A stretch of 55,653 nucleotides of DNA from an uncultured Rikenellaceae bacterium (GTDB lineage: Bacteria; Bacteroidota; Bacteroidia; Bacteroidales; VadinHA17), in contig CAYLYN010000004.1 in the NCBI GenBank assembly GCA_964387565.1, positions 1 through 55,653 of the forward strand, written 5' to 3'. The position numbers and the translations under genes were made by a program. The notes under the pieces were generated by a model that saw only the letters and a program-made list of their open reading frames with translations, was not told where the DNA came from and did no database searches. Of the stretch, positions 13,847 to 54,930 are shown in pieces; positions within the stretch are counted from its first letter, which is position 1, and each line of letters opens with the position of its first letter.

Positions 13847-13887
13847 GAATTAAGGATAGATATTTTTTAACCATAAATTAATAGGAT

Positions 13888-15690: not shown

Positions 15691-15699
15691 AGAAGCATT

Positions 15700-16857: not shown

Positions 16858-16868
16858 AAAACAGATTC

Positions 16869-19636: not shown

Positions 19637-19724
19637 TTATCTGATATTTGAAATCTTAGAGAATCCTTTGCAGAAGCTTGGTCAGCAAAGAAAAGAATGA
19701 TTGAGACCCTTATCCCTGATTATA

Positions 19725-21218: not shown

Positions 21219-21232
21219 ATTTCATGCCTTAA

Positions 21233-23375: not shown

Positions 23376-23404
23376 GACTTATTGATTTAAACAGGTTAAA
23401 TTTA

Positions 23405-25126
23405 TCAATGTGAATCCCTCATAACGACAGATCCTGATTCTCCTGCAAGAAAATCAAAATCACACCCCTTATCAGCCTGCTGTACATGCTGAATGAACAT
23501 ACTGACATAGCCGCGTGAAGCAACCGGTGGAGGCGGAGTCCACGAATTTCTCCTCCTTTGTAAGATTTCTTCTGACACATCCAGGTTCAGGCTTCTTTCC
23601 TTTACATTAAGCTCTATTATATCTCCATTTTCCACGAGTGCAAGAGTACCTCCTGCAGTTGATTCGGGTGAAACATGCAGTACTACAGTACCGTACGCTG
23701 TTCCGCTCATCCTTCCATCCGAGATGCGGACCATATCTGTGATACCCTTTTTTATCAGCTTCTGAGGCAGATCCATGTTTCCTACTTCAGGCATACCCGG
23801 GTACCCTGCCGGCCCTACTCCCTTCAGTACCATAATACAATTCTCATCTATGTCAAGGTCAGGATCATCAATCCTCTCATGGTAATCTTCCATACTCTCA
23901 AAAACAACTGCCCTGCCCCTGTGATGAAGCAGCTCGCCTGAAGTTGCCGAAGGTTTAATTACCGCACCATTCTCGCACAGATTGCCTTTCAGAACAGCAA
24001 TTCCTGCTTTTTCCTTAAAAGGATTTTCCAATTTTGCAATTACATCGTAGTTATAACATGGCGCTCCTTTACAGTTTTCGCCAATCGACTTTCCATTAAC
24101 TGTAATCGCATCAGCATGAATAATATCTTTAAGCTGATCAATTATTACAGGTAATCCCCCGGCGTAGTAAAAATCTTCCATCAGGTATTTACCTGAAGGC
24201 ATAAGGTTAAGCAACAGAGGCATATCACTTCCCAGCTTATCGAAATCGTCAAGAGTAAGCTTGACTCCTATCCTGCCTGCAATTGCCAGCATGTGAATTA
24301 TCAGGTTAGTCGAACCACCTACTGCTGAATTGATTCTGATTGCATTTTCAAATGAGTTCCTGGTCAGGATGTCTGACATCTTCAGGTTTTCCTTTACCAT
24401 CTCTACTATCCGGTTCCCGGAGAGGTGAGCCATTACTTTTTTTCTCGAGTCTACTGCCGGTATGGCAGCAGCACCAGGCAATGTAAGTCCAAGTGCTTCT
24501 ACCATTGTTGCCATTGTTGAAGCAGTACCCATCGTCATACAATGTCCTGCGCTTCTTGAAACACAACTTTCAGCTTCTACCAGATCCTGTTCCGATATGG
24601 TGCCGGCTTTCAGACCTTCAGAAAGCTGCCAGGTTGATGTTCCGGATCCAATTTCCTTTCCCCTGAACTTGCCATTAAGCATAGGTCCGCCGGGGACAAC
24701 TATAGTTGGCAGATTTACACTGGCTGCTCCCATAAGGGTTGAGGGTGTTGTTTTGTCACACCCGGTCAGCAGTACTATCCCGTCTAATGGATTTGCCCTG
24801 ATCGTCTCTTCCACATCCATACTTGCCAGGTTGCGCCAGAGCATCGTTGTTGGCTTCATAATTGTCTCACCCAGCGACATCACCGGAAACTCGAGAGGAA
24901 AGCCTCCTGCCTCATAAACACCACGCTTCACAATCTCGGCAAACTCCCTTAGATGTCCGTTGCATGGAGTCAGATCCGACCATGTATTGCAGATGCCAAT
25001 AACGGGTTTTCCTCTGAACATATGATCAGGATGGCCCTGGTTCCTCAGCCAGCTGCGATGAACAAAACCCATTTTATCATTTTTGCCGAACCACTCGCTG
25101 CTCCTTAAATAATAAGACTTCCCCAT
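23405..25126 (-). CDS. IlvD/Edd-family sugar-acid dehydratase (L-arabinonate/D-xylonate dehydratase-like)
   Basis: 573 aa. LRSSEWFGKNDKMGFVHRSWLRNQG, GICNTWSDLTPCN, LLTGCDKTTP, SRSAGHCMTMGTASTM: the pentonate-dehydratase subgroup pattern. Confidence 0.85.
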   Translation of the reverse strand: MGKSYYLRSSEWFGKNDKMGFVHRSWLRNQGHPDHMFRGKPVIGICNTWSDLTPCNGHLREFAEIVKRGVYEAGGFPLEFPVMSLGETIMKPTTMLWRNLASMDVEETIRANPLDGIVLLTGCDKTTPSTLMGAASVNLPTIVVPGGPMLNGKFRGKEIGSGTSTWQLSEGLKAGTISEQDLVEAESCVSRSAGHCMTMGTASTMATMVEALGLTLPGAAAIPAVDSRKKVMAHLSGNRIVEMVKENLKMSDILTRNSFENAIRINSAVGGSTNLIIHMLAIAGRIGVKLTLDDFDKLGSDMPLLLNLMPSGKYLMEDFYYAGGLPVIIDQLKDIIHADAITVNGKSIGENCKGAPCYNYDVIAKLENPFKEKAGIAVLKGNLCENGAVIKPSATSGELLHHRGRAVVFESMEDYHERIDDPDLDIDENCIMVLKGVGPAGYPGMPEVGNMDLPQKLIKKGITDMVRISDGRMSGTAYGTVVLHVSPESTAGGTLALVENGDIIELNVKERSLNLDVSEEILQRRRNSWTPPPPVASRGYVSMFIQHVQQADKGCDFDFLAGESGSVVMRDSH

Positions 25127-25148
25127 TTTATTAATAGTTTATAAATAA

Positions 25149-26978
25149 TCATAAAGATGTCCCGCGTTTCCATGGGATAAAATCAACCTGTCCGTTAATT
25201 ATGCTGGCAGGTTCTTTTATGCCGCCTGCCACCTCAATTACATAGTTTAAAATCCTTTCGGCAACCTGTTCAATATTTTCCTTCCCTTCAATTATAGTCC
25301 CTGCATTAATATCGATTATATCAGGCATCTTATGAAAAAGGCTGGTGTTTGTTGATATTTTTATTACCGGCGCAACAGGATTGCCTGTGGGTGTGCCAAG
25401 ACCGGTTGTGAACAAAACCAGGTTGGCACCTGAAGCTACCTCAGCAGTTACTGACTCAACATCATTGCCAGGACTGCAAAGAAGGTGAAGTCCCTGTCTA
25501 TTTATTTTTTCAGGATAGTCTGATACCGATACAACAGAAGAAGTACCGCCTTTTTTTGCAGCCCCGGCTGATTTCATGGCATCTGTTATAAGGCCATCAC
25601 TGATATTTCCCGGTGAGGGATTACTGTCAAAACCTGAACCGGCAGCTCTTGCTTTATCATTGTACGACTTCATTATTTCCAGGAACTTATCCGCATCGGA
25701 CTTATTTACACAACGGTCATAGAGATTTTGCTCCACTCCACTGAGTTCCGGAAACTCTGACAGGATAACTGAACCACCAAGGGCAACAATCATATCTGAA
25801 ACCAGGCCAACTGCAGGATTAGCAGAGATCCCTGAAAATCCATCTGATCCGCCACATTCAACACCAATGCAGAGTTTTGAAAGAGGTGCCGGCCTGCGTT
25901 CAACCTTGTCAGCCTCAGCCAGCCCCCTGAAGACTGAACGGATAGCCTGCCTGATCATTTCATCTTCAGATCCTATCTTTTGTTGTTCAAATTCAAAAAG
26001 CGGCTTTGAAAAATCCGGATCACGTTTTCTGATCTCTTTGTGTAAGATAGAAAGCTGAGCATTCTGGCAACCCAGGCTGAGAACAGTAGCTCCGGCCACA
26101 TTCGGGTGAGTGATATACCCTGCAAGAAGTCCGCACAGCTCCTCTGAGTCCTGCCTCGATTCCCCGCATCCGCCGCTGTGAGTGAGAAATCTGATCCCCG
26201 ATACATTTCTGAAGATCTTTGGCTTCTCAGTTCCTGCATCTGAATTGGCAGATCCATGCTCTGGTGTATCAACTGAAGATTTCTCATTTTTATAAGATGA
26301 GACCAGATCCCTGACCAGAGAGTTATATTTCGACACTTGCTGATATCCAAGTTCATGAAGAACTGCGTCTTTAATGATTTCCACGTTTCTGTTCTCACAA
26401 AAGACCATTGGCATTACCAGCCAGTAGTTAGCAGTACCAACCTGACCATCGGCCCTGTGATATCCCTGGAAACTTCTGCCCTTAAAAGTGTCTGTTGCAG
26501 GTGGTGACCAGATATAATTACGGGGATTGTTCCTTATTACTTCACTTGTGGCATTAACAGTGTTTTCTACTGTTATTGCCTTTCCTTTTGGAATCGATTG
26601 AATGGCTGTACCAACCTTTATACCATAAAGATAAATTGTCTGCCCGGCCGGTAGATCAGACAGGGCGAATTTATGCTTTGCGCCAATAAATGCTTTAATT
26701 ACTACCTGTTTATCTCCCAGTAATACATTAGTTCCTTCATCCAAATCTTCAAGGGCAACCGCAACATTGTCAAGAGGATGAAGATGAAGGACCCGGTTCT
26801 TTACCATACCGGCATCTTCCTTCAAAGGATCATCTATAAAACTGTTAAATGCCTGCATATCTTTTACCTGATTATCATTAGATTTCCCCGGAATACCAAA
26901 CACCATTCCGAATGATGACATGAAAATGAAATTCCTCCTTGAGAGAATTGATTTAAATTCCGATCCTGATCTTGCCAT
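25149..26978 (-). CDS. UxaA/GarD-family dehydratase (altronate / galactarate dehydratase-like)
   Basis: SAF-like N-domain LHLHPLDNVAVAL plus the UxaA C-domain (GCGESRQDSE, VECGGSDGFSGISANP). The ATG at 26978 adds a 57-aa extension containing SRRNFIF. An alternative start is M58 at 26807. Confidence 0.8.
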   Translation of the reverse strand: MARSGSEFKSILSRRNFIFMSSFGMVFGIPGKSNDNQVKDMQAFNSFIDDPLKEDAGMVKNRVLHLHPLDNVAVALEDLDEGTNVLLGDKQVVIKAFIGAKHKFALSDLPAGQTIYLYGIKVGTAIQSIPKGKAITVENTVNATSEVIRNNPRNYIWSPPATDTFKGRSFQGYHRADGQVGTANYWLVMPMVFCENRNVEIIKDAVLHELGYQQVSKYNSLVRDLVSSYKNEKSSVDTPEHGSANSDAGTEKPKIFRNVSGIRFLTHSGGCGESRQDSEELCGLLAGYITHPNVAGATVLSLGCQNAQLSILHKEIRKRDPDFSKPLFEFEQQKIGSEDEMIRQAIRSVFRGLAEADKVERRPAPLSKLCIGVECGGSDGFSGISANPAVGLVSDMIVALGGSVILSEFPELSGVEQNLYDRCVNKSDADKFLEIMKSYNDKARAAGSGFDSNPSPGNISDGLITDAMKSAGAAKKGGTSSVVSVSDYPEKINRQGLHLLCSPGNDVESVTAEVASGANLVLFTTGLGTPTGNPVAPVIKISTNTSLFHKMPDIIDINAGTIIEGKENIEQVAERILNYVIEVAGGIKEPASIINGQVDFIPWKRGTSL

Positions 26979-31276: not shown

Positions 31277-32692
31277 TTATCTGACACAATTTGTCTTCAG
31301 GTAGTCCATCCGCTTTTTCAACTTTTCAATTTCAATAGAGTAATCAGGGTTGTTCATCAGATTGGTTGTCTCTTTCCTGTCATTCGAAAGATCGAAGAAT
31401 TCCTCGTATTTATAATAAGGCCACATTATATATTTTGAATCACGAGTGATAATAGCCTCAGATGAAGGGATCCTGCTCTCATTAGTAACGAAGGGATGCT
31501 CATAATAAAAATCTTCTCTCCAGCCACTCCTGTCATCTGAGAGATAGAGTCTCGAAAGGTCCTCTCCCTGCATAGTCTCTGGCACATTGATCCCTGTTGC
31601 GGAGAGGATTAAGGGAGCGATATCGATATTTAAGACGAATTCTTCATTATAACAATTCCGCTTGCTTTGAACAAGTCGCGGATCATGTACTATCAGGGGA
31701 ACTCTGACAGATTCCTCATATGGATACCATTTATCGGCAAGACCATGTTCAGAATGAAAATATCCGTTGTCGCCCATAAATATTATTAGCGTATTATCAT
31801 AAACTCCCTGCTCCCTGAGTTCATTGATTATCCTGCCTGTTGCAGCATCGAGTTCGGTAAGCATCCTGTAATATGCTTTCATATACCTCTGATATTTTTC
31901 AGGGGAATCGAATCTCCAGTGCCATCTGATCCTGCCTTCGTTAACCTCTGTCGAGAGAAAATAAGGCAGCAACCGGAAGTAATCATCAGAAGAGGTTTCA
32001 GGTACCGGAATAGTATCATTTTTATATAAGGCTTCACTTTCAGGCTGGTAACGATACTGGTCAGGATGATTATCCTCTGCATGTGTTGCAAAGAAACTGA
32101 CAGAGAGTACAAAAGGTTTATTCCTGGGTCGTTCTTTAAGGAAGATCAGGGCATCACGGCAGTTCCTGGCAGTAACATGTATTGAATCACCATCAGCTTC
32201 CGGCCACCAGTGCTTTCCTTCATATTCCCTTGAAAAATCAAAATTATCAGGGTCGATCTTTCCTACACCATACTTCCCGACAAAACCCGAATAGTAACCT
32301 GCCTCCCTGAGTAATGCAGGATATGTCAGTGAGAATGCTGCAGGAGAAAGAGGAACTCCAAAATCTCTGATACCGTGACGGCTCATATACTGGCCTGTTA
32401 GTAATGAGGCTCTGCTCACCATACTAATTGAAGTTGTTACAAATGCATTAGTAAACCGGATACCGTCAGCGGCAAGTGAATCAAGATTTGGAGTATGCAG
32501 TATATCATTCCCCATGCAATTAAGTGAATTCCACCTCAGATCATCAGCCAGGAGGAAGAGAACATTCATTTTTTCATCCCCGCTGTCTGTTTTCCCTGAA
32601 CTGCAGGAGGCTGATAAAAGGCAGAATCCACCCGATATTGCGACACTGTATATTTTATGGAAATGCCTGCTAAATGAATTCATAAATCTCAA
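31277..32692 (-). CDS. sulfatase (lipoprotein), Ser-type with non-canonical S-M-V-S-R maturation motif
   Basis: 471 aa. NVLFLLADDLRW, TSISMVSRASLLTGQ (nt 32411-32425), FMGDNGY. Lipobox LSASC. Confidence 0.85.
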   Translation of the reverse strand: MRFMNSFSRHFHKIYSVAISGGFCLLSASCSSGKTDSGDEKMNVLFLLADDLRWNSLNCMGNDILHTPNLDSLAADGIRFTNAFVTTSISMVSRASLLTGQYMSRHGIRDFGVPLSPAAFSLTYPALLREAGYYSGFVGKYGVGKIDPDNFDFSREYEGKHWWPEADGDSIHVTARNCRDALIFLKERPRNKPFVLSVSFFATHAEDNHPDQYRYQPESEALYKNDTIPVPETSSDDYFRLLPYFLSTEVNEGRIRWHWRFDSPEKYQRYMKAYYRMLTELDAATGRIINELREQGVYDNTLIIFMGDNGYFHSEHGLADKWYPYEESVRVPLIVHDPRLVQSKRNCYNEEFVLNIDIAPLILSATGINVPETMQGEDLSRLYLSDDRSGWREDFYYEHPFVTNESRIPSSEAIITRDSKYIMWPYYKYEEFFDLSNDRKETTNLMNNPDYSIEIEKLKKRMDYLKTNCVR

Positions 32693-32722: not shown

Positions 32723-34213
32723 CTATTCAAAATTCATGTTACCCCCTCTTTCCCTGATCCAGGTTCTCAGGATCTGCCTGTGCGATTCTAACTCATCTTC
32801 GAATTCCTGATCATATGCAAGATTTCGCATTTCACCCGGATCATTTATAAGATCGAAAAACTGTTCATTGAAGGTCCCGGAAGTAAAATAGTTATATTTA
32901 AATCTCTCAGTTCTTACCATTCGCCCCAGTCTCGTTGTATCAGGCTTGTAATCGGCAAGCTCAACAATAATACTTTCGTGCAGTGAAGAAAGTTTACCTT
33001 CAATCAGAGGACGAAGGCTTTTACCTGCAAAATTCAATTCCGTACTGATGGAGGCATAATCACAAAATGTAGGAACCAGATCGGCTAATGTTACAATACT
33101 ACTGCTTACCCTGTTCTTTTTGATTTTTCCAGGGTAAATAAAAAACAAAGGGACCTTAGCAGACTCTTCATAAAGGCTATTTTTTGCCGCCCACTTATGA
33201 GCAGCTGCTCCATCACCATGATCTGAAGTGAATACAATTATTGTGTTTTTATCAAATCCGTTCCCCTCAATTTCTTTTAAAAGCCTTCCTATTTCAGAGT
33301 CCACACGCTCAGTCATCCTGTAATAGGCATTAAGATATGATTGCCATTCTTCATCAGAATAAGTGAATGCCAGCTTAGTCTCCAAACCATAAGTTTCATG
33401 GTGCAGTCTCTTTTCTGTTAAGAATTCCGGTTCATTTTTACTAACCGGGAAGTTAAAAGGAAGCGGAGGAAGATCTTTAAGCTTATCCGGGGCTATACCA
33501 ATCGGGTCAGGTAAACGGTATTTGAACCCATAGTAGCGTATTTCAAGCAGAGAATCATTTTCAGAAACCCATCCCGATTTTCTTGGATGGAAACATATAT
33601 CATGCGGATTATGATAGCTTACGACCAGAAATAATGGTTTCTTCCTGTCATAATTTTTGAGAAAGGCTGTCACAGCGTCAGTTAATGGAGGATCCGTTTC
33701 CGATCCAAGCATCCATGGTTCTTTTTCAGCATCATAGAATGGAAGTACCTCGAATCCCCTGATTTTCCTTTCACCTGATCTGGCTGCTGCTCTCTGAGGA
33801 TAACTTTCAGGCAGGTGCCATTTACCTCCCCATATGGTATTATAACCAGCCTCACGAAATATCTCTCCAACAGTCACAACATCTGAATTGAGTGAATCAC
33901 CATTATAAACCACGCCTGTTTCACAAGGCATCATTCCGGATATGATACTCGACCTTGACGGGCCGGAAACAGGAGATGTACAATATGCCTGGGTAAATCT
34001 TATTCCCGTTTGAGCCAGCCTGTCCATATTCGGTGTTTTGACATATTTGTTGCCGGCGATACCCAATGTTTGTGAATTCTGCTGATCAGTGAAGATTAAA
34101 ATTATGTTTGGTTGTTCCTGTTTCCCGTTGTTGGAACAAGAAACACCTCCATAAAAGAGAAGTGCGGTAACAGGTAAAATACAGGTATTACTTTTTATTA
34201 TCGGGATTCTCAT
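32723..34213 (-). CDS. sulfatase (lipoprotein), Ser-type (S-G-P-S-R)
   Basis: 496 aa. NIILIFTDQQ, CTSPVSGPSRSSIISG (nt 33953-33967), FTSDHGD. Lipobox GGVSC. Confidence 0.85.
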   Translation of the reverse strand: MRIPIIKSNTCILPVTALLFYGGVSCSNNGKQEQPNIILIFTDQQNSQTLGIAGNKYVKTPNMDRLAQTGIRFTQAYCTSPVSGPSRSSIISGMMPCETGVVYNGDSLNSDVVTVGEIFREAGYNTIWGGKWHLPESYPQRAAARSGERKIRGFEVLPFYDAEKEPWMLGSETDPPLTDAVTAFLKNYDRKKPLFLVVSYHNPHDICFHPRKSGWVSENDSLLEIRYYGFKYRLPDPIGIAPDKLKDLPPLPFNFPVSKNEPEFLTEKRLHHETYGLETKLAFTYSDEEWQSYLNAYYRMTERVDSEIGRLLKEIEGNGFDKNTIIVFTSDHGDGAAAHKWAAKNSLYEESAKVPLFFIYPGKIKKNRVSSSIVTLADLVPTFCDYASISTELNFAGKSLRPLIEGKLSSLHESIIVELADYKPDTTRLGRMVRTERFKYNYFTSGTFNEQFFDLINDPGEMRNLAYDQEFEDELESHRQILRTWIRERGGNMNFE

Positions 34214-34229
34214 AACAAAGCATTGAGTA

Positions 34230-36644
34230 CTATTCCGGCAATCTGCCTATATGTAATTCTTTCTGTGATGTTGAAAGATATTCAAAAAGCGGCAGATTTC
34301 GTAACTGGTCAACATCTTTGATTTTATTGACATTGACAAAAACTATATCTCCGTGAGTCTTTCCAAACTCTCCCTTGAAATCATATATGGCTGCCATTAC
34401 TGTGAGCTTACCCTCCTGGATAAGATCCTTATATTTTTTCGTAGCTATATTAACCTGGTAATCGAGGTTTTTCTCAATTATATGTGAGTGCAGCTTATCA
34501 AAATCCTTTATAGCCTGTTCTTTTATTGAAGGCTTCAGAAAATCCAGTTCATGCTTAATGCTATAGCTCTCATCCTCAAATCCTTTAAGATAAGCTTTAA
34601 TGGCACCACAGTCTGAATGACCCAGGAACATCAAGATCTGGGTTTTAAGATGGTAAATCCCATAATCAACAGATCCCTCGGTTGAGAGTATCTGGTTTCC
34701 TATATTCTGAATTGTGAATACCTTATTTGAAGTATCGGGCATCAGTGAATTAAGAGGCACACGTGAATCAGCACAGGTAACGAGGGTTATATATGGTTTC
34801 TGCTCAAAACTGAAGCTGTCGAAATACTCCTTGGGATGGGTCTGTACAAAATAATTGTTCCCCAGTACTATCTGGGTGATTATTTCCGGCGGGAGCAGGG
34901 ACTTTGGTTTTACAGGAGCTTTCTTAATATCAGGCTCTACCTCGCCGATTGCAGCAACCACCATATCATGAAGAGTATCGCGGCGACTTACATGCCCGAG
35001 CAGGTGTTCAATCTCTTCAAGCCTTAACCTGTCACGCACTCCTGAATGTGCTTCAGCTACCTTCAGATCAATACCTTTTGCTGACAGATTTTCGTATAAT
35101 CTTTTAATCAGCCTTGCACCACTGGAGTCAATATGTGCAGATGTACTCAGATCAAAAATTACTGTTTTGATAGGTTTCTCTGATGCCTTTATCTTTTCCC
35201 ATACAACACGGTAAACATAAGCTACATTGAAGTAATAGAGAGGAGCTTCTACCCTGAAAAGAAAAATTTCAGGAATCAGTTCATTATCAGGATGTCTTTT
35301 AATATCAGTGTAACGGTTGGTACCTGGAATCCTGCCAAGGAAAGCGATATGCGGGCTTGACACAGCCCTTATAATAAGTGTCAGCGAAAAAAGTGCAGCG
35401 AAGAGAACTCCTTTGAGAATGCCAAATATAATTACTGCAATAAGAGATGTCATTGCAATAACGAAATCAATCCTGTTCACCTTGTACATCCTCTTCATTT
35501 CCCTGAAGTCGAATAGCCCCTTGATAGCAAAAAGAACTATAGCAGCAAGGATTACCATAGGAAGGTTCTTCAGCAGCCCTGTAAGAAAAAGAAGACACAT
35601 CCCTATTGCTATTGAAGCCACAATCAGGGATACGGGTGTTTTAGCTCCTGCCTTATCATTAACTGCCGATTGAGATAAGCCTCCGCTAACCGGATAACCC
35701 GATCCAATAGAAGTAACCAGATTGGCAACACCCAGCGCAAGCAATTCCTGTCCTGCATCAATATCATATCCGTTTTTCTGGGCAAGGGTTTTGGCAGCAG
35801 AAACACTTTCAATATAAGCCAGCAGAAAACAGGCAAAGGCCAGAGGGATTATATTCATCATATCCCCGATAATATTGTCAGCTTTAAGATCAGGCATCCG
35901 GAAGTCTGGTAAGCCAGCCGGTAATACTCCTACTGTTTTGAAACCCATTGAACCCAGCGGAGTGAAGCTTATTACCAGGATAGATACGATAACAACGACA
36001 ATTGCCACAGGCTTTCCTGGAAAGAGTTTATTACCTATCACAAGAAGTGCAATTGCAGTTATGCCAAATATCAATACAACCAGTTTTGTATCCGATATCT
36101 GGCCCCCAAGTGCCAGAATCCGTGAAATGAATGATTCTCCCCCTCCTGGCACACCAAATAACTTTGGGATCTGGGATAATCCAATCATAATTGCAGCACC
36201 GGCCTTGAAACCAACAAGCACTGTTTCACTTATGAAGTTAATTATGCTGCTTAGGCGCAGTATATATGCAAGTACAGAAATCACAGAAAATACAAGTGCA
36301 GACAATGAGGCGAGGTCAACCCAGCGCTGGACATCTCCGCCTGAAAGATCGGCAAGTGTAACACCTATAAGCATTGAAATAGCAGAAGTAGGACCTATTG
36401 CAAGTTGCCTGCTGGTTCCAAAAAAAGCATAGAAAAGCCCTCCCAGCAGGTATCCGTATATGCCATATTGCGGAGGTAATCCCGCCAGTGTTGCATAGGC
36501 CAGAGATACTGGTATTGCATAAGCTGCGAGGGTGAAACCTGAAACAATATCACTGCCAAGAAGTCCTGCTGAATATTCTGGTATCCAGGTTAATGCAGGA
36601 ATGTACTTCCTTAGCTTTAATTGAATGAAACCGTTAGCATTCAT
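34230..36644 (-). CDS. SulP-family anion transporter fused to STAS and beta-carbonic-anhydrase domains
   Basis: 804 aa. SulP membrane domain, a STAS region (VIFDLSTSAHIDSSGARLIKRL), and C-terminal beta-CA zinc-ligand motifs CADSRV and GHSDCGA. Confidence 0.85.
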   Translation of the reverse strand: MNANGFIQLKLRKYIPALTWIPEYSAGLLGSDIVSGFTLAAYAIPVSLAYATLAGLPPQYGIYGYLLGGLFYAFFGTSRQLAIGPTSAISMLIGVTLADLSGGDVQRWVDLASLSALVFSVISVLAYILRLSSIINFISETVLVGFKAGAAIMIGLSQIPKLFGVPGGGESFISRILALGGQISDTKLVVLIFGITAIALLVIGNKLFPGKPVAIVVVIVSILVISFTPLGSMGFKTVGVLPAGLPDFRMPDLKADNIIGDMMNIIPLAFACFLLAYIESVSAAKTLAQKNGYDIDAGQELLALGVANLVTSIGSGYPVSGGLSQSAVNDKAGAKTPVSLIVASIAIGMCLLFLTGLLKNLPMVILAAIVLFAIKGLFDFREMKRMYKVNRIDFVIAMTSLIAVIIFGILKGVLFAALFSLTLIIRAVSSPHIAFLGRIPGTNRYTDIKRHPDNELIPEIFLFRVEAPLYYFNVAYVYRVVWEKIKASEKPIKTVIFDLSTSAHIDSSGARLIKRLYENLSAKGIDLKVAEAHSGVRDRLRLEEIEHLLGHVSRRDTLHDMVVAAIGEVEPDIKKAPVKPKSLLPPEIITQIVLGNNYFVQTHPKEYFDSFSFEQKPYITLVTCADSRVPLNSLMPDTSNKVFTIQNIGNQILSTEGSVDYGIYHLKTQILMFLGHSDCGAIKAYLKGFEDESYSIKHELDFLKPSIKEQAIKDFDKLHSHIIEKNLDYQVNIATKKYKDLIQEGKLTVMAAIYDFKGEFGKTHGDIVFVNVNKIKDVDQLRNLPLFEYLSTSQKELHIGRLPE

Positions 36645-48142: not shown

Positions 48143-49258
48143 CTAATCTACAAACTTCAGACAGGATGGGGATTTTATTTTATAATCTTTCCCTGGAAGG
48201 ATCGGAACACCGGTTTTTTTATTCAATGTGAAAAGAGTGATATTACCGGAATTCTGATTTCCAACAATAAGATACTTTCCTGAAGGGTCGATAACAAAAT
48301 TCCTTGGCCATTCACCACCGCAGGAAGTAATATCTGCTACAGTTAATCTGCCGTCAGAACCAACTTTGTAAGTCACTATTGAATTATGCCCCCTGTTTGA
48401 TCCATACAGAAATTTCCCGTCTCTTGATAAATGGACATCGGCACAGAAGCTCTTCTCACTGAAACCCTGAGGCAGTGTGGATAAAGTCTGGATCTCTTTA
48501 AGATTTCCGTCCTTTTCAATATTGAAAACCGTAAGAGTGGAATTCAGCTCGTTGATAACAAACATTTTCGAGCCATCCTTGCTGAAGGTAAAATGACGGG
48601 GGCCTGCTCCTTTTGCCAGCTTTGCGTACCCGGTATTTATAAGCTTGCCTGTTTCCCTGTTGAGATCATAAATAGCCACCCTGTCAAGACCCAGGTCAGT
48701 CAGATAGATTTTCTTTCCATCGGGACCCGGAGAAACCATATGAGCATGTGACCGCGTTCCCTCTTCTCCCCTGAACATTATTGTATCACTTACTTCAACA
48801 GGCACTCCTTTGGAATCAAGTCTCACTACTGCTACAGATCCTCCTCCATAATTAGCAATGAGCAGGTAATCCTCCGAAGGAGTCAGTGAGATATAGCATG
48901 GACCACCATTCGGTACAGCAAGATCCTTGATTTTCTCTGTTGTTCCAGATTTAAGATCAAGCTTAAGAGCAGTAAGTCCGCCTGCCCTTACTCCATTCAT
49001 CCTGCCTACCTCATTTACTGCGTAAATCATGCTTAACTTCTTCGAGATGCAGAAATAGGAAGGATTATTTCCGGCATCATTTTCAGTAACCGGTGTGAAG
49101 GTCCCTTTTCCCAGATCAACATCAAGCACATGTATTCCTTTCTCTCCCTGGCCGGTATATTTTCCAACATAAAGCCTTGATGTCTGGCCATTAAGCACGA
49201 CTGAAAATACCAGCAATAATACCGGAATCAATACTGAATTATAAATTTTTTTCATCAT
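48143..49258 (-). CDS. secreted 7-bladed beta-propeller lactonase (6-phosphogluconolactonase/YbhE-like)
   Basis: Repeated blade motifs (GxxPxHxxxSPDGKxLYxxN-like). The start is set at the tandem ATGATG (49258) preceding a signal peptide MMKKIYNSVLIPVLLLVFSVVLNGQ. The 27-codon extension in the ORF track is the translated conserved leader. Confidence 0.75.
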   Translation of the reverse strand: MMKKIYNSVLIPVLLLVFSVVLNGQTSRLYVGKYTGQGEKGIHVLDVDLGKGTFTPVTENDAGNNPSYFCISKKLSMIYAVNEVGRMNGVRAGGLTALKLDLKSGTTEKIKDLAVPNGGPCYISLTPSEDYLLIANYGGGSVAVVRLDSKGVPVEVSDTIMFRGEEGTRSHAHMVSPGPDGKKIYLTDLGLDRVAIYDLNRETGKLINTGYAKLAKGAGPRHFTFSKDGSKMFVINELNSTLTVFNIEKDGNLKEIQTLSTLPQGFSEKSFCADVHLSRDGKFLYGSNRGHNSIVTYKVGSDGRLTVADITSCGGEWPRNFVIDPSGKYLIVGNQNSGNITLFTLNKKTGVPILPGKDYKIKSPSCLKFVD

Positions 49259-49303
49259 ATAATAATTGATTTTAATGGAATGATGGAATCCGCATGTTTG
49301 AAT
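49259..49303 (-). promoter_or_regulatory. conserved 5' leader, copy B (TCAAACATG-N4-TTCCATCATTCC-A-TTAAAATCAA-N7-ATGATG on the coding strand)
   Basis: Same three exact blocks as 28072-28119, placed immediately upstream of a tandem ATGATG start. Confidence 0.55.
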
Positions 49304-49373
49304 ATTATTTCTATTCTTGTTTTCATATTGTTCAATCATGTGAGTATCATCATAAGTATTTTATGTTCTGAAT

Positions 49374-50321
49374 CTAAACTTCAAAGTCATCTACCTCCCT
49401 GTATGCCTCAATAACTCTTGCCTCTCCCTCTTTTGTTCTGCTCTTCATTCCATGTTCCATGCAGATAACACCCTGGTAACCCTTGCTATGTACAAATTTG
49501 AATACATTTTTATAATTGATTTCCCCTGTTGTCGGTTCCATTCTGCCAGGATTATCACCACAATGCAATGCAGCAATTTCGCTCCAGGCAGCTTCCATAT
49601 TCGGTATAATGTTACCTTCTGTAATCTGCTGATGATAAACGTCTTCGATGATTTTGCAAGATGGACGGTTTACTGCCCTGCAAATAGCAAATGCCTGAGG
49701 TATGCCGGTCAGGAACAGTCCCGGATGGTCTCTTATTGTATTCAGAGGTTCAAGTACTATTGTTAGTCCGGCAGGTTCAACAATGTCACAACAATACCTG
49801 AGGTTGTCGATGACATTTGCTGTCTGGAAATCTCTTGAAAGTCTTTCGTCGTATCTGCCTGGTACAACCAGAGCATGTTTTGCTCCGGTTCTTTTCGCAA
49901 CTTCCACACCCTCTTTCATTTTACTGAGCAGCATCTCCCGTGTTTCCTGCTTGTTAAGCACAAATGATGTTACAGAGAAGTCGGCATAAAGTACAAAAGG
50001 TCCGAAGTCCATTCCAAGACGCTGAAGTTCTCCTGTAAGTTTTACCTGCTCATCAGGAGGCCTGTTCATCAGTCCGTTGTCAAACATTGCTCTGAAACCC
50101 ATATCGTGACAGAATTTTATATTGTCGACAATATCAGTTCCGGCATGCTCACGGAACATGCCAACCGAAGGTGCATATTTCAGTTTGAATGGAACAACAG
50201 GATCTGGTGCTTTTCCTTTTGTCTTTTTCTTCCCTTCCTGACCAAAAACTGCAGGAGCAGCTAAAACAGCGGCTCCTGCTAGTGTGGCTCTTCTTATGAA
50301 ATCTCTTCTTGAATTTATCAT
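49374..50321 (-). CDS. TAT-exported xylose-isomerase-like TIM-barrel protein (sugar phosphate isomerase/epimerase, hydroxypyruvate-isomerase-like)
   Basis: 315 aa. Twin-arginine signal SRRDFIRRATLAGAAVLAAPAVFG. The AP-endonuclease-2/xylose-isomerase-like pattern includes VLEPLN and HCGDNPGR. Confidence 0.7.
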   Translation of the reverse strand: MINSRRDFIRRATLAGAAVLAAPAVFGQEGKKKTKGKAPDPVVPFKLKYAPSVGMFREHAGTDIVDNIKFCHDMGFRAMFDNGLMNRPPDEQVKLTGELQRLGMDFGPFVLYADFSVTSFVLNKQETREMLLSKMKEGVEVAKRTGAKHALVVPGRYDERLSRDFQTANVIDNLRYCCDIVEPAGLTIVLEPLNTIRDHPGLFLTGIPQAFAICRAVNRPSCKIIEDVYHQQITEGNIIPNMEAAWSEIAALHCGDNPGRMEPTTGEINYKNVFKFVHSKGYQGVICMEHGMKSRTKEGEARVIEAYREVDDFEV

Positions 50322-50360: not shown

Positions 50361-51710
50361 TCAACCCTCACCCGGTACGTAAGGAAGTCCTGCAACAGGT
50401 ACTTCTTTAGGTATGTTCACCGGACCAAAATCAAATACTGTCGGGCCGAGTTTGAGGTCGGAGTTCATCATCTCCTCATAAGTGGTCTCTTTACCGGTAT
50501 AAGCAGAGATACGTCCCATTATTGCTACCATGGTTGATATTGCAGTATTCTCCAGTTCATTGAATGTCTTACCGGTTCTGATGGCAGTTACAAGATCAAT
50601 ATGTTCCTGGACATAAGGATCAACACTTACATTATTAGTCGGTTTCCCGTCTTTATCCAGAGGATAATCATATTTCCAGAGCTCTGTTCCTGCAAGATCA
50701 AGTACTGCATTCCGGCAGTTGGTTGATCCCTTTGCACCCTGAAGTCGTTCGGATACATTGTTTACACAGCCATTAATCTGACGACACATACTATGAGCAT
50801 GAATGCCGTTCTCAAAGGTATAATCGATGCTGAAGTTGTCATACTGATCACCGGTAACGCGGCGCAGTCTTGAACCAAAGCCTACTGCTTTGACGGGGTG
50901 AGAACCTGTGAACCAGTTAAGAACATCAAGATTATGTACATGCTGTTCAACAATATGGTCACCTGAAAGCCAGGTCCAGTTAACCCAGTTACGTATCATA
51001 TACTCCATTTCACTCCAGCTGGGATTGGGATCGCGGTGCCATAGTTTGCCACCATTCCAGTATACTGTTCCACCAACCAGGTCACCAATAAGGCCCTGTG
51101 CTACCTGCTGCCATGTAGCGACATAGTCTCGCTGATGCCTCCTCTGAGTTCCAGTTGCAATGCTCAGCTCAAGCCCTTTTGCCTTCTGGGCTGTAGCCAT
51201 AACTGACCTTGCTCCGACAGGGTCAACACAAACCGGCTTTTCTGAAAATACGTGTTTCTTTGCCTGGACACATGCAGCCAGGTGCTCTGGACGGAAATAC
51301 GGAGGAGTTGCAAGAATTACAATGTCAACACCTGAATCGATCACTTTCTGGAAAGCATCGAAACCTGTAAAACAGTTCTCAGCAGGAACATCCTGGCCTT
51401 TCTGCTTCTTTATAGCATCCCTGCATGAATCAACTCTGTCCTGGAACGTATCACCAAGTGCAGTAACCTGAAGGTTTGGACCTGCACTAAGAAAATTGAT
51501 TGCAGCTCCTGTACCCCGACCGCCACAGCCAACTACCCCTGCTTTAAGCACCGGCCCATCAGGAGCCTGGTCGAGCATAACAGGAATTGTAACGCTCTTT
51601 TTTGATTCACGGGAACAGCTGGCAAGTATTGTGGGAGCAACTACGCCTGCCACACCCACTGATGCTGCTTTGCCAAGGAAATTTCGTCTTGAAATACTGG
51701 ATTTTTTCAT
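50361..51710 (-). CDS. TAT-exported Gfo/Idh/MocA-family NAD(P)-dependent oxidoreductase
   Basis: 449 aa. Signal SRRNFLGKAASVGVAGV...LASC. Rossmann motif AGVVGCGGRGTGAA, EKP (FSEKPV), and GDHIVEQHVHNLDV. Confidence 0.8.
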   Translation of the reverse strand: MKKSSISRRNFLGKAASVGVAGVVAPTILASCSRESKKSVTIPVMLDQAPDGPVLKAGVVGCGGRGTGAAINFLSAGPNLQVTALGDTFQDRVDSCRDAIKKQKGQDVPAENCFTGFDAFQKVIDSGVDIVILATPPYFRPEHLAACVQAKKHVFSEKPVCVDPVGARSVMATAQKAKGLELSIATGTQRRHQRDYVATWQQVAQGLIGDLVGGTVYWNGGKLWHRDPNPSWSEMEYMIRNWVNWTWLSGDHIVEQHVHNLDVLNWFTGSHPVKAVGFGSRLRRVTGDQYDNFSIDYTFENGIHAHSMCRQINGCVNNVSERLQGAKGSTNCRNAVLDLAGTELWKYDYPLDKDGKPTNNVSVDPYVQEHIDLVTAIRTGKTFNELENTAISTMVAIMGRISAYTGKETTYEEMMNSDLKLGPTVFDFGPVNIPKEVPVAGLPYVPGEG

Positions 51711-51829: not shown

Positions 51830-53362
51830 TTAATTGTGAGATCCAGTGTTACCGGTCTTTTCATTGAACTCGCAAACAACTCTGAATCCCACATTAAAAC
51901 AATCGGAATACCACCATATGCTTTTTGGCATTTGAGGATCAGTTTTAAGCCAGGCGGCAGTTCGCGTATAATCGCGGGCAGCACTTCTCAGAACATCTGC
52001 AGTGCTAAGGAATGATCCGCCTCTTACTACTCTTTCCTCACCTGAAGCCGGACCTGTTGGATCTTTCACAACTCCTTCCGGGTATATCGAATAGGCATCC
52101 GGCTGGTACCAGTCCGAACAGAATTCAGCAACATTCCCCAGCATATTTTTAAGTCCGAAAGCATTTGGTTTTACCCTGTCAGCAAGTTGTGTCTTTGCAG
52201 AACTGTTGGCTTTATATATCACATATGTGTTGATAACTGTTGTATCGTTTCTGGAAAGCTTTGCCCTGAGTCCGGTTTTCTGAAACTTATCAGGATCGCC
52301 AGGGAAAAAGTATGGCCCTTCACTACCCGAACGGCATGCATATTCCCACTCTGCTTCTGTTGGCAGACGATAGGTTTTGCCTGTTACCTTGCTTAGCCAC
52401 CTGCAGTAGGTCTCAGCAGCATGAAAAGAGAATGATATGGCAGGCCTCTGCCCCATTCCCCATCCCTGGTCAGGCTGTCCGTAAGGAGGAGTTGCACCGG
52501 ATATAGCATCAGTTTCATTCTCCCGATTTTTTCGGGTACCTTCCGTATCAGTAGTGCGACCCTCGGCAGCTGTCTGTACATAAAAAGCCAGATATTCATC
52601 CCAGGTTACCTCTATCTCAGCCATAAAGAAAGGACTCAGCTCAACTTCCCTTACCGGCCCTTCATCAGGCTGCCTGAAAGGCTCATCAGGAGGACTGCCC
52701 ATTTTGAACTTTCCTCCGGGAACAGCAACCATATTGAATGATACAGATGAGTTTGGAATCTTTTCAGTATAATTTTCAAATTTATCCACTATTGCAGGTT
52801 CAGTATATATTTCCTTTGGAGCAGCCGATGCAGCACCGAATGTAGCATTGCTGCCATGTGTATATCCCTCTATATAATGACCTGCATTCAGGTGGCAGTT
52901 AATACAATGTAATTCATCATTATCTTTTGTCTGTGTGTAATATAAATGGGCATTCTCACCCTCCTTTGTAAGCTTTGCAGGAAACAGGTTTACATGACAT
53001 TTCTTACAGCTGCTTTCAAAAACATGTCCTCGCGCTACTTCAAGCCTTCCCCTCTCTTCCCAGTTAAATGATGCGGAATCCTTTGTCCAGTAACTCCAGA
53101 GATCTCTCAATCCTGTTTTAGCTTTATGATAAAGGTAATTATCTCCTTTGGGCGGGAGATGGCATTCAACGCAGGCAATTCGTGATCCTGATCTTGTATC
53201 ATAATGAACCGATTTTTTCCAGGCTGCATCAGCCAGGGGATGTATGTGACAGGACATGCAAAAATCATTTGAGGATGTTATATCAATGGCTTTTCCCCCC
53301 CCAAGTATCAGTAATGCTCCCAAAATCAGACCGGGAACAAACCAAAGCAGAACTTTCTTCAT
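51830..53362 (-). CDS. membrane-anchored NapC/NirT-type tetrahaem cytochrome c fused to an FGE/SUMF1-fold domain lacking the catalytic Cys pair
   Basis: 510 aa with an N-terminal TM helix. Four CXXCH motifs (CMSCH, CVECH, CKKCH, CINCH) lie within aa 35-157. aa ~205-505 show FGE-sulfatase-fold signatures (VPGGKFKMGSP, EVTWDEY, RLPTEAEWEYACR, RGGSFLSTADVLRSAAR, VGFRVV). Confidence 0.75.
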   Translation of the reverse strand: MKKVLLWFVPGLILGALLILGGGKAIDITSSNDFCMSCHIHPLADAAWKKSVHYDTRSGSRIACVECHLPPKGDNYLYHKAKTGLRDLWSYWTKDSASFNWEERGRLEVARGHVFESSCKKCHVNLFPAKLTKEGENAHLYYTQTKDNDELHCINCHLNAGHYIEGYTHGSNATFGAASAAPKEIYTEPAIVDKFENYTEKIPNSSVSFNMVAVPGGKFKMGSPPDEPFRQPDEGPVREVELSPFFMAEIEVTWDEYLAFYVQTAAEGRTTDTEGTRKNRENETDAISGATPPYGQPDQGWGMGQRPAISFSFHAAETYCRWLSKVTGKTYRLPTEAEWEYACRSGSEGPYFFPGDPDKFQKTGLRAKLSRNDTTVINTYVIYKANSSAKTQLADRVKPNAFGLKNMLGNVAEFCSDWYQPDAYSIYPEGVVKDPTGPASGEERVVRGGSFLSTADVLRSAARDYTRTAAWLKTDPQMPKSIWWYSDCFNVGFRVVCEFNEKTGNTGSHN

Positions 53363-53415: not shown

Positions 53416-53431
53416 TGTGAAAATTTTCACA
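53416..53431. promoter_or_regulatory. perfect CRP/FNR-type palindrome TGTGA-AAATTT-TCACA in a divergent promoter region
   Basis: Read directly. An extra TCACA half-site lies at 53401-53405 and a 12-bp palindrome AGATAATTATCT at 53388-53399. The site centre is about 61 nt from the cytochrome-FGE ATG and about 76 nt from the 53500 ATG. Confidence 0.45.
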
Positions 53432-53499
53432 ATAAAAACAGTCAAAAACAGTTACTTATTGTTATAGTTTAAATTGTAATTTTGGCATTCAACCAAATA

Positions 53500-54930
53500 A
53501 TGATGAAAAGGATTCTTATTCTCCTGCTTGTTATCATTTCTGCATCTTCCGTATTTGCACATCCATGGAAACCAAGACATTATGTAATTGTTGATACCGA
53601 TGCAGGGATTGACGACATCAAAGCTATCTCAATGCTCCTGGCATCTCCTGATGTGAGGGTTCTGGCAATAAGTATATCCCCTGGAGCTCTGAATGCCCAG
53701 GCAGGTTACCGGAAGATTAAAAGCCTTCTTAACAGCTATTACCACGAGGGTATCCCGGTTGGCATAAACAGATCCTGCGGTTTCAAATCGCCGGATTTTC
53801 CAAATGCCCTTGAAGCCAGATGGGGAGATGAAACTCTTGTTAATCCGGCTGATGCACCGGAAAGCATTGATATGCTCAGAGAAATATTCTCCATTGAAAA
53901 AAACAAAGTGAGTATGATATGCCTGGGAGGATTATCAACTGCAGCGTCTGCCCTGAAACAGATCCCTCAGACCAGGGAAAGTATCAGACAGATAATCTGG
54001 AGTGCCGATGGATTCTCAGATAAAATGGGATTTAATTTTAAAATTGACCCTAAATCCGCAGCTAGTGTTATTGGAGGCGGAATACCGGTTTCAGTGGTGA
54101 AAAGTGCAGGATCAGTTGAATTCTATGATCATTCCCTGATTGGCAGAATCTCAGAAATCAACAATGTATATTCGGGAATGATCTCAAAATTCCTAAAATC
54201 AGAAGAAGGCAGGAATCATGAATTTTCGTTCAGTCTTGTTGATGATGCTGTGCCGGTATATTTGCATTATCCTGCACTCTTCAGTACCGATTCAACTGAA
54301 AAAGGCATTGAAGCTGTTCCTGATGATATCAGTCAGATAAAAGATAAAACAATAAAAATTTTCCGTGGAGAAACTGTTGAAAGAAACCAGGTTATTAAGG
54401 AGTTACCGGTGACTCCATCATTTTATTTCAATGACATTGAATCTTCTGTATCAGAGATCATTAACAAATACGGACCCGACGAATGGACATCAGGTGTGAT
54501 AGCAAATGAACTGCACAGACACCTAGGTGTATTTGCTATTGCAGGTGTTAAGATGGGAATCAGGGCCAGAGAGTATTTTGATACAGGTGTTGATGAATTT
54601 AAAGTAACATCATTTGCAGGATCCATGCCTCCACTCAGCTGCATGAATGACGGTCTGCAGGTAAGCACAGGTGCTACTCCGGGTCACGGTCTCCTTACTG
54701 TTAAATCAGATTCGCTTGCCCCTGCAGCAATATTCACATATATGAACAGGAAAATTAAACTCACTCTGAAACCCGACATTGCAGCAATGATCAGTAACGA
54801 ACTTAGCGAAATCAATTTTGTATATGGTCTTGACAGCGATATCTACTGGGAACTGGTCAGGAAAAATTCAATAAAATACTGGTTAAAGCTTGACCGACAT
54901 GATATTTTCATAATCGAAAAGCTTCACTGA
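53500..54930 (+). CDS. secreted fusion protein: inosine-uridine nucleoside-hydrolase-like domain + FmdE-like domain
   Basis: ATG at 53500/53503 (the ORF track opens at a TTG, 53482). Signal peptide ...SASSVFAHP. IUNH fingerprint VIVDTDAGIDDIKAI (DxDxxxDD, nt 53593-53616). The C-terminal segment ELHRHLGVFAIAGVKMGIRA...SCMNDGLQVSTGATPGHGLLTV matches the FmdE/FwdE family pattern. Confidence 0.7.
   Translation: MMKRILILLLVIISASSVFAHPWKPRHYVIVDTDAGIDDIKAISMLLASPDVRVLAISISPGALNAQAGYRKIKSLLNSYYHEGIPVGINRSCGFKSPDFPNALEARWGDETLVNPADAPESIDMLREIFSIEKNKVSMICLGGLSTAASALKQIPQTRESIRQIIWSADGFSDKMGFNFKIDPKSAASVIGGGIPVSVVKSAGSVEFYDHSLIGRISEINNVYSGMISKFLKSEEGRNHEFSFSLVDDAVPVYLHYPALFSTDSTEKGIEAVPDDISQIKDKTIKIFRGETVERNQVIKELPVTPSFYFNDIESSVSEIINKYGPDEWTSGVIANELHRHLGVFAIAGVKMGIRAREYFDTGVDEFKVTSFAGSMPPLSCMNDGLQVSTGATPGHGLLTVKSDSLAPAAIFTYMNRKIKLTLKPDIAAMISNELSEINFVYGLDSDIYWELVRKNSIKYWLKLDRHDIFIIEKLH

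Follow-up and report, generated by a model that had tools for sequence, protein, structure and literature searches.

What does a NapC/NirT-type cytochrome do with a covalently attached domain of the formylglycine-generating enzyme (FGE) fold? The question is raised by one gene on a 55,653-nucleotide stretch of DNA from an uncultured Rikenellaceae bacterium of the Bacteroidales (contig CAYLYN010000004.1, positions 1 to 55,653 of the forward strand; hereafter the window). The gene encodes a membrane-anchored tetrahaem cytochrome fused to an FGE-fold domain. Here, we compared this protein and its gene neighbourhood with relatives from databases and metagenomes. The fusion protein is real and widespread, its FGE-fold domain carries a candidate motif for flavin attachment by ApbE, and in distant lineages the domain is accompanied by an exported dehydrogenase of the Gfo/Idh/MocA (GFO) family. 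Based on these comparisons, we estimate at roughly one in two the probability that the protein serves a periplasmic sugar or glycoside dehydrogenase as its membrane-anchored subunit for electron transfer to the respiratory chain, working through flavin mononucleotide (FMN). The FGE fold would then probably carry a covalently bound flavin that connects a periplasmic NAD(P)-dehydrogenase with a cytochrome of the quinone pool, and the gene would probably be part of a widespread, unannotated electron-transfer module akin to quinone-linked periplasmic dehydrogenases and to ApbE-flavinylated relays.

The fusion of a tetrahaem cytochrome and an FGE-fold domain is genuine

The gene is a single open reading frame (ORF) with an ATG start and a product of 510 aa (Table 1). 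A sequence-only reading of this DNA had described it as a transmembrane anchor, four CXXCH motifs, a linker and an FGE domain in one frame, and both translation and Pfam agreed with that layout, since Cytochrom_NNT and FGE-sulfatase (PF03781; aa 210-465, 160.7 bits, cut-off 23.3) scored far above their cut-offs. Everything after the anchor is predicted to be periplasmic from the positive-inside rule and from the requirement for haem attachment in that compartment.

At E<=1e-5 the fusion protein had 7,924 homologues. The best 120 of these contained both domains at 76-93% identity and were mostly 504-531 aa long (range 472-563). In the sets that we gathered, 287 members from several phyla combined at least four haem motifs with the hallmark loop of the FGE-like domain described below. 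A genome scan gave 217 relatives, the best 80 of which were almost all metagenome-assembled genomes of uncultured Bacteroidales or other Bacteroidota sampled in fens, lakes, sediments and digesters. When a free-standing relative was used as the query, many further NapC-fused forms came up, belonging to Acidobacteriota, Terriglobia and candidate division KSB1, and a search of a representative library, dominated by giant proteins with multiple FGE repeats, added few useful relatives. Conservation figures given here and below refer to an alignment of 58 diverse relatives, which also served as input for an AlphaFold2 (AF2) model. F195 in the linker is invariant, and the F..YTE.IP segment at the linker end is the same segment with which free-standing relatives begin in the alignment; the stretch aa 154-182 has a model confidence (pLDDT) below 50. 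Because full-length forms recur across samples, assemblers and phyla with a conserved linker, the fusion is genuine. A frameshift or misassembly joining two genes, named beforehand as what might undo the claim, was ruled out by the hundreds of full-length fusions found in Bacteroidota, Acidobacteriota and KSB1. In the literature that we searched, from which most subscription journals lay outside coverage, we found no description of the fusion, of the FGE-like/GFO pair, of the cassette or of a flavinylated FGE fold.

The FGE-fold domain has lost the catalytic copper site and carries a subfamily hallmark

In the copper motif of FGEs (CxxxxC), the second Cys lies five residues past the first. In HMMER alignments to solved Cu-FGEs, the query segment GGSFLST stands opposite GGSFLCH or GGSYLCH, so that the first catalytic Cys is replaced by Ser; the second position, just past the end of the printed alignment, is presumably Leu by the same spacing. 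The domain thus clears the FGE-fold threshold and shows no catalytic pair after alignment, and the loss of the Cu-binding Cys pair reported at nt 51974-52021 is upheld by translation and alignment alike. The earlier description of the domain as Cys-less was correct for this pair and incorrect beyond it: five other Cys are present (320, 343, 415, 488 and 497), and Cys415 is invariant. The AF2 model confirmed the FGE fold with a confident core, for which Foldseek gave PvdO as the best PDB match (5hha, TM-score 0.76 on the target), followed by Cu-FGEs; confidence was low for the haem domain and for both the motif and the hallmark loops.

A role as sulfatase maturase was ruled out, as the sequence-only reading had held. 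The Cys pair is absent, both sulfatases of the window carry Ser rather than Cys at the formylglycine position, and Ser-type sulfatases are not matured by Cu-FGE. These two sulfatase genes are adjacent (31277-32692 and 32723-34213, both on the minus strand); neither has Cys at that position, one reading S-G-P-S-R and the other S-M-V-S-R, with Val in place of the Pro that is usually conserved.

Curated models did not place the domain in a characterized family. PvdO, which NCBIfam names a dehydrogenase, was the best NCBIfam match, with 115.3 bits against a cut-off of 500 (NF051459), and no pyoverdine context was seen. The GldK model (TIGR03525) gave 102.8 bits against 350. The GldJ model gave 43.7 against 458, and the N-terminus has a transmembrane anchor and a haem domain and no lipobox. 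The two models used for EgtB, OvoA and SenA gave 69.5 (EgtB) against 360 and 68.7 against 420, each matching the FGE-like part only, and Pfam found no DinB domain in the fusion protein.

What does define the subfamily is a loop ahead of the final GFRVV strand with the pattern DPQxPKSxWWYSD, in which D475, P476, Q477, P479, S481, W483, W484, S486 and D487 are invariant. Free-standing relatives, secreted proteins of about 320-350 aa with signal peptides, carry it as well. Two NapC-fused proteins of the representative library (P0126 and P0192) no longer have the N-terminal portion of the FGE domain (GGxFxMGS...DEGP) and retain both the flavinylation-like loop described next and the DPQxPKSxWW loop, which suggests that these two loops may form the functional core.

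A candidate ApbE flavinylation motif lies on a family-specific loop

ApbE moves FMN from flavin adenine dinucleotide onto the last Ser or Thr of a D-x-x-[S/T]-G-A-[S/T] motif in extracytoplasmic proteins (PMC12052999, PMC8238504), and FMN installed in this way acts as an electron relay between membrane carriers and periplasmic enzymes (PMC8238504). Among all ORFs of the window, the strict motif occurred in the fusion protein only, as DAISGAT, with Thr291 as the predicted FMN site. By predicted topology the motif is periplasmic, as it follows an N-in transmembrane anchor and c-type haem motifs. It lies on a long, family-specific loop that does not align with canonical FGEs and has a pLDDT below 50 in the AF2 model, properties that fit a mobile arm.

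The heptad was identical in 117 of the 120 closest homologues, and across the diverse relatives neither Thr291 nor Gly289 varies, while Asp285 shows at least 90% conservation. For comparison, the strict motif appeared in 3 of 1,370 non-family ORFs and was absent from ordinary FGE domains. We then counted residues in 404 members with the hallmark, 287 of them haem-fused and 117 other. In the haem-fused group, position 1 was Asp in 285, position 4 Ser or Thr in 284, position 5 Gly in all 287, position 6 Ala in 214 and Pro in 73, and position 7 Thr in all 287. In the other group the corresponding figures were Asp in 101, Thr or Ser in 112, Arg in 64 and Gly in 52, Pro in 113 and Ala in 4, and Thr in 61 and Ser in 56. 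The final residue was thus Thr or Ser in 404 of 404 members. Among the 117 others the two exchange freely with a hydroxyl always kept, as one would expect if the hydroxyl matters.

No known flavin carrier domain (FMN_bind, DUF2271, DUF3570, NqrB/RnfD) was detected in the protein by Pfam, which matched cytochrome models and FGE-sulfatase only. Other proteins of the cassette were considered as ApbE targets and rejected: [ST]GA[ST] had no match in the GFO, TIM-barrel and lactonase proteins of the window, and the divergently encoded nucleoside-hydrolase/FmdE protein contains a bare TGAT only. Within the parts that could be searched, namely the main texts and portions of the supplements to the 2021 survey, the flavinylation surveys make no mention of FGE, sulfatase or Gfo.

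ApbE genes adjoin the FGE-like gene in several lineages

ApbE-like ORFs were present in 11 of 167 sequences scanned, and every one lay immediately beside the FGE-like gene; Pfam confirmed five of these ORFs as ApbE with 169-255 bits. Separate gene calls found ApbE also in L167, L168 and L169 and confirmed it in L161. Altogether, 14 related loci have an ApbE gene, representing about six separate lineages as judged from FGE-like domains 32-74% identical and locus GC contents of 39-63%; two of them are NapC-fused.

The FGE-like domain is paired with a specific GFO dehydrogenase

The gene had been said to head a string of periplasmic sugar enzymes, and the downstream run fits this description: a GFO oxidoreductase and a TIM barrel, both with signals for twin-arginine translocation (TAT), are followed by a lactonase. 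The lactonase is probably exported as well, judging from a hydrophobic, signal-like internal segment that follows a later Met. Beyond it, the same strand encodes a rhamnosidase-like glycosidase, GlpD, GlpK and GlpF. Intergenic gaps along this whole run, up to the Glp genes, measure 16-119 bp, with no convincing terminator in between. The partner GFO has a twin-arginine signal and a Rossmann GxGxxG, and its nearest solved relatives are DgpA1 and inositol dehydrogenases; with 18 bits against a cut-off of 750, it is not a member of the BT2158 family.

About 38 of the 80 closest loci share the arrangement of the window, with GFO, TIM barrel and lactonase among the next three downstream genes, and a co-located lactonase was seen in 29 of 80 related loci and in the distant locus L115. 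Shared upstream genes in the 80 loci (phospholipase D-like, esterase, metallo-beta-lactamase-fold and class I fumarase) were discounted as housekeeping genes of closely related genomes. For a more distant comparison, we scanned metagenomes with an alignment headed by the free-standing form and obtained 80 loci. A GFO orthologue lay directly downstream on the same strand in all 11 NapC-fused metagenome loci that had downstream sequence. Most free-standing forms (35-45% identity) likewise precede a GFO gene, often with the TIM barrel in addition (pairs in L093, L099, L100, L102-106, L109-111, L117, L120, L130 and L164-168). Separate gene calls with Pfam confirmed the pairing in Acidobacteriota (L161), KSB1 (L162), Chitinophagaceae (L167 and L168), two further lineages (L164 and L166) and L169. 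The three genes for the FGE-like, GFO and TIM proteins have 4-base overlaps in L166, and in L170 (7633-10418) two M16-family peptidase genes stand between the NapC-FGE-like gene and GFO plus TIM.

The scores identify the partner as one specific GFO orthologous group: in L084 the partner GFO scores 547 bits and the other GFO paralogues 27-38. Because the FGE-like/GFO pair is kept without the fused cytochrome, the domain appears tied specifically to the GFO dehydrogenase. Judged by gene order, the conserved core is the FGE-like protein and GFO, with or without the TIM barrel, and the cytochrome is a variable add-on. In L131 (4067-5644, 6900-8993) two modules of the planctomycete cytochrome c type (PSCyt1) are independently fused to the same domain, and a further membrane protein with 6 haems, related to NapC, is encoded separately in this cluster; in L115 (1264-2583) a single CXXCH module is fused, again independently. 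The idea of an FGE module of unknown activity fed by a cytochrome is thus confirmed as to the conserved fusion and modified as to the module, which is tied to GFO and carries a motif suggestive of a flavin cofactor.

Two observations concern the wider neighbourhood. In L109 (6949-7596) and also in L110, a Tll0287-like single-haem gene lies immediately upstream of the free-standing FGE-like gene, which is followed by GFO and TIM. Two distant lineages have genes for 3-keto-disaccharide hydrolase (DUF1080) and ThuA in the vicinity of the FGE-like/GFO pair (L161, 12195-12739; L164, 149-1171), a hint that some members at least may take part in 3-keto-glycoside chemistry.

Table 1. Positions of the fusion gene, its parts and its neighbours in the window
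Feature	Coordinates	Strand	Basis
Fusion gene, tetrahaem cytochrome plus FGE-fold domain, membrane-anchored	51830..53362	-	ORF listing, Pfam, full-length homologues
Transmembrane anchor, aa 4-24, VLLWFVPGLILGALLILGGGK	53291..53353	-	Top hydropathy window and translation; Lys-Lys precedes
NapC/NirT-type tetrahaem domain, aa 4-163	52874..53353	-	Pfam Cytochrom_NNT (PF03264), 88.2 bits, cut-off 24.1
CXXCH 1, aa 35	53246-53260	-	
CXXCH 2, aa 64	53159-53173	-	
CXXCH 3, aa 119	52994-53008	-	
CXXCH 4, aa 153	52892-52906	-	
Linker, aa 164-209	52736..52873	-	Predicted flexible; ends with conserved F..YTE.IP
FGE-fold domain, aa 210-498, hallmark subfamily	51869..52735	-	Pfam, PDB matches, Foldseek
DAISGAT, aa 285-291, candidate ApbE flavinylation motif; Thr291 predicted FMN site	52490..52510	-	Translation
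Degenerate copper site, GGSFLSTADVLRSAAR (GGSFLSTADVL)	51974..52021	-	Translation, HMMER alignments
Hallmark loop, aa 475-487, DPQMPKSIWWYSD, ahead of final GFRVV strand	51902..51940	-	Translation
GFO oxidoreductase, 449 aa, TAT-exported, partner gene	50361..51710	-	Pfam GFO_IDH_MocA and TAT model
Xylose-isomerase-like TIM barrel, 315 aa, TAT-exported; frequent third cassette member	49374..50321	-	Pfam, TAT model
Seven-bladed beta-propeller lactonase, 398 aa as listed	48143..49339	-	Pfam Lactonase, 336.8 bits
Perfect palindrome TGTGAAAATTTTCACA (TGTGA-N6-TCACA), CRP/FNR-type	53416..53431	.	54-69 nt upstream of start codon
Secreted nucleoside-hydrolase (inosine-uridine)/FmdE fusion, divergent from cytochrome gene	53482-54930	+	Pfam

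The tetrahaem domain belongs to the NapC/NirT family

By Pfam the tetrahaem domain is a member of the NapC/NirT family, and it is not an orthologue of NapC, NirT, NrfH or TorC. The curated models gave 52.1 bits against a cut-off of 310.6 for NapC/NirT (TIGR02161), 64.5 against 134.2 for NrfH (TIGR03153) and 66.6 against 478 for TorC. The CXXCH motifs are nearly invariant, likewise His41, 53, 139 and 162, and Lys80 and Asp87 are at least 90% conserved. A PDB sequence search with the haem domain found nothing at E<=0.01 and, at E<=10, a single weak match to NrfH (2j7a, E=0.012), in which the query HKAKTGLRD lies opposite FKAIAGARD and thereby pairs Lys80 and Asp87 with an NrfH segment. This segment may correspond to the quinol site of NrfH, in line with the title of a paper on CymA Lys91, which would make Lys80 and Asp87 putative quinone-site residues.

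A proposed electron path and the explanations that compete with it

In the mechanism that we propose, ApbE would place FMN on Thr291 in the periplasm. The GFO enzyme, exported in folded form with a non-exchangeable NAD(P), would oxidize a sugar and be left in its NAD(P)H form. The FMN on its flexible loop would then re-oxidize this NAD(P)H, acting as the 'second substrate' of a ping-pong enzyme of the GFOR type and converting a two-electron hydride into one-electron steps. The four haems would pass the electrons to the membrane, where a NapC-type site would reduce menaquinone. TIM barrel and lactonase would process the oxidized sugar, and where this flavin domain is free-standing, its electrons would go to other carriers. 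Electron flow from sugar to quinone is the likely direction, because menaquinone lies downhill by standard potentials and a lactonase is encoded in the operon. The broader proposal is more tentative: the FGE fold may represent a new class of ApbE-flavinylated carrier that re-oxidizes the NAD(P)H of GFO and so would make a redox-neutral periplasmic sugar pathway respiratory, as a single NapC-fused polypeptide in Bacteroidota, Acidobacteriota and KSB1.

Several points weigh against this mechanism. Everything that concerns FMN is something we infer from sequence, and we know of no precedent in which NAD(P)H bound to a GFO enzyme passes its hydride to the flavin of another protein. The AF2 model is of no use for judging how loop, haems and domains lie relative to each other. 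In 33 of the 80 closest loci (about 40%) a SusC/SusD-like pair occupies the downstream position instead of GFO; these two arrangements make the GFO link ambiguous from close relatives, and by gene order the pairing is not obligatory in this lineage. An ApbE gene is absent from the window and from the 80 closest Bacteroidales loci, so that a housekeeping ApbE elsewhere in the genome must be assumed. Most of the distant relatives deviate from the canonical motif, with Pro for Ala or Arg-Pro for Gly-Ala, and Gly-to-Ala and Ala-to-Val substitutions cost about 50% of flavinylation (PMC12052999). Finally, conservation of the loop extends well past the heptad (PPYGxPDQGWG), which could mean a protein interface or a ligand site rather than a flavin site.

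This extended conservation, the Arg-Pro or Gly-Pro motifs of many relatives and the missing ApbE gene in the window and its closest relatives would all suit a docking scaffold. The FGE-like domain would then have no cofactor and would hold GFO or another partner against the cytochrome in a PorK/GldK-like manner, with the SGAT-like loop as the interface. FGE folds without catalytic residues do have structural roles, PorK (the FGE-fold ring protein PorK/GldK) is among the fold matches, and the GldK model reaches about 103 bits. We consider such a scaffold unlikely, because it would leave the ApbE adjacency in about six separate lineages and the strict retention of a hydroxyl with free Thr/Ser exchange unexplained, it would offer no other target for ApbE in a cassette whose GFO, TIM and lactonase proteins are without [ST]GA[ST], and it would provide no converter from two-electron to one-electron transfer between NAD(P)H and the haems.

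Next in rank, and unlikely as well, is a reductive direction, which comes close to the sequence-only reading and in which the tetrahaem domain would oxidize menaquinol and send electrons through the FGE-like domain, with or without a flavin, to GFO or another periplasmic substrate, such as keto-sugars or some other acceptor. NapC/NirT proteins are classically quinol dehydrogenases, and the Pfam and NCBIfam matches of our domain are to NapC, NrfH and TorC. Moreover, flavinylated domains often supply periplasmic reductases (PMC8238504), and the published GFO pathway has a reduction step for 3-keto sugars. However, textbook potentials of about -75 mV for menaquinol and about -320 mV for an NAD(P)-bound enzyme make the former a poor donor to the latter, and the lactonase in the operon and in the distant locus L115 fits an oxidized (lactone) product.

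Databases label relatives as 'SUMF1/EgtB/PvdO family nonheme iron enzyme', and PvdO is the best match by both NCBIfam and fold, so that the FGE-like domain might itself act on a small molecule as a nonheme iron or PvdO-like enzyme, with the haems giving or taking electrons. We regard this as improbable: the invariant residues are Trp, Arg, Glu, Asp, Gly and Pro with the single Cys415 and form no conserved His/Cys cluster, the PvdO and EgtB scores stay at 115 against 500 and 69.5 against 360 with no DinB domain found, and the linkage to ApbE and GFO would be left unexplained. An artefact joining a NapC gene to an FGE-family gene by frameshift or misassembly is refuted by the census of full-length fusions with their conserved linker.

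Promoter palindrome and divergent gene

The CRP-like site that had been noted in the promoter is present as a perfect palindrome within a divergent intergenic region of 119 bp, and it is the only zero-mismatch match in the window. Its half-sites are kept, with a variable spacer, at 69-71 nt (script count) from the start in the 8 closest orthologous loci and are absent from the wider family beyond these, which makes the CRP-like site a real and lineage-specific feature. The divergent nucleoside-hydrolase/FmdE gene holds the same position in 54 of 80 close Bacteroidales loci and in L082 and is missing from the other distant relatives; we treated it as lineage-specific and outside the core module. 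Its product contains STGAT within the FmdE domain, which may be a mere FmdE family motif.

Other genes of the window

Further genes of the window were noted in passing. On the plus strand at 11412-18605, genes resembling small and large subunits of [NiFe]-hydrogenase are followed by two genes for HdrA-like flavoprotein/ferredoxin-domain proteins and a 4Fe-4S protein; this cluster recalls electron-bifurcating modules of the Mvh/Hdr type and is unusual for Bacteroidales. A region of sugar-acid catabolism at 18674-26978 encodes KdgT and GntP permeases, an aldehyde dehydrogenase, an FAA-hydrolase-family protein, an ILVD/EDD-type dehydratase and an altronate/galactarate-dehydratase-like protein. 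These genes could serve the use of aldonates from periplasmic GFO plus lactonase, a suggestion based on proximity only at a distance of about 25 kb. At 34230-36644 (minus strand), a single 804-aa protein combines SulP sulfate-permease, STAS and beta-carbonic anhydrase domains, and at 7268-8305 (minus strand) a 345-aa protein matches the family of the delta subunit of CO dehydrogenase/acetyl-CoA synthase (CdhD), with no other Wood-Ljungdahl genes seen nearby.

Implications and comparison with known systems

Periplasmic GFO dehydrogenases with a locked-in NAD(P) are central to newly recognized pathways by which Bacteroidota degrade glycans, glucosinolates and drugs. The fusion family offers a testable answer to how their cofactor could be re-oxidized without a second sugar, namely through a dedicated flavin/haem wire to the quinone pool. 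If this proposal is true, the short list of ApbE substrates would gain a new fold, and thousands of genes mislabelled 'formylglycine-generating enzyme' or 'nonheme iron enzyme' would gain a function. Fusion-family genes would also no longer be counted as sulfatase maturases in metagenome annotation. Many environmental anaerobes, among them Bacteroidales of fens, sediments and digesters, Acidobacteriota, KSB1 and Chitinophagaceae, could then be regarded as conserving energy from extracytoplasmic sugar oxidation.

With NapC, NirT, NrfH, CymA and TorC, the fusion protein shares the single N-terminal transmembrane helix and four CXXCH motifs at the family spacing. TorC likewise has an additional periplasmic domain fused at its C-terminus, which is a haem domain there and an FGE fold here, and the first haem motif reads CXXCHxH in place of the CXXCHxM of NrfH. 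Unlike in the rest of this family, a sugar dehydrogenase that depends on NAD(P) is the likely partner here, and electrons would probably run towards reduction of quinone. Compared with Cu-FGEs (SUMF1 and bacterial FGE), the domain has the same overall fold with RLPTEAEWEYA, GNVxE(F/W) and RGGS, whereas both Cu-binding Cys are missing and extra loops are present. PvdO, the best fold match, is similarly periplasmic, is without the FGE catalytic Cys and has a role in an oxidation. It differs in that its loop at the position of the motif reads CIAG-KPRYQQ, so that the motif is absent there, and in lacking the DPQxPKSxWW loop, a haem domain and any context of GFO or ApbE.

The known ApbE substrates (NqrC, RnfG, PplA, the FMN domains of fumarate and urocanate reductases, DUF2271 and DUF3570) resemble our protein in being periplasmic, in carrying D-x-x-[S/T]-G-A-[S/T] on a loop and in adjoining apbE in many lineages, with a presumed role as one-electron/two-electron relays between membrane carriers and a periplasmic enzyme. 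In contrast, the carrier here would be an FGE/C-type-lectin-like fold instead of FMN_bind, its flavinylation is a candidate one, and many members have Gly-Pro or Arg-Pro in the motif.

The cofactor-recycling problem of exported GFO dehydrogenases with tightly bound NAD(P) is documented, and one enzyme of the GFO family, ThuB, depends on a partner protein that is not an obvious one (PMC8121099). Zymomonas GFOR, the glycoside 3-dehydrogenase pathway of Bacteroides (BT2158/AL3) and DgpA are comparable to the cassette in the twin-arginine signal of the partner and in the TIM-barrel neighbour. Those systems reduce a second sugar to recycle NAD(P)H and are redox-neutral, whereas here a flavin/haem partner would drain the electrons into the quinone pool. 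A coupling of periplasmic sugar oxidation to the respiratory chain, as we propose for this cassette, also exists in ThuAB and LacABC, which are glycoside 3-dehydrogenases linked to cytochrome c; the difference is that the partner here is an FGE-fold protein instead of ThuA, and that the link to the membrane would be the fused NapC-type cytochrome.

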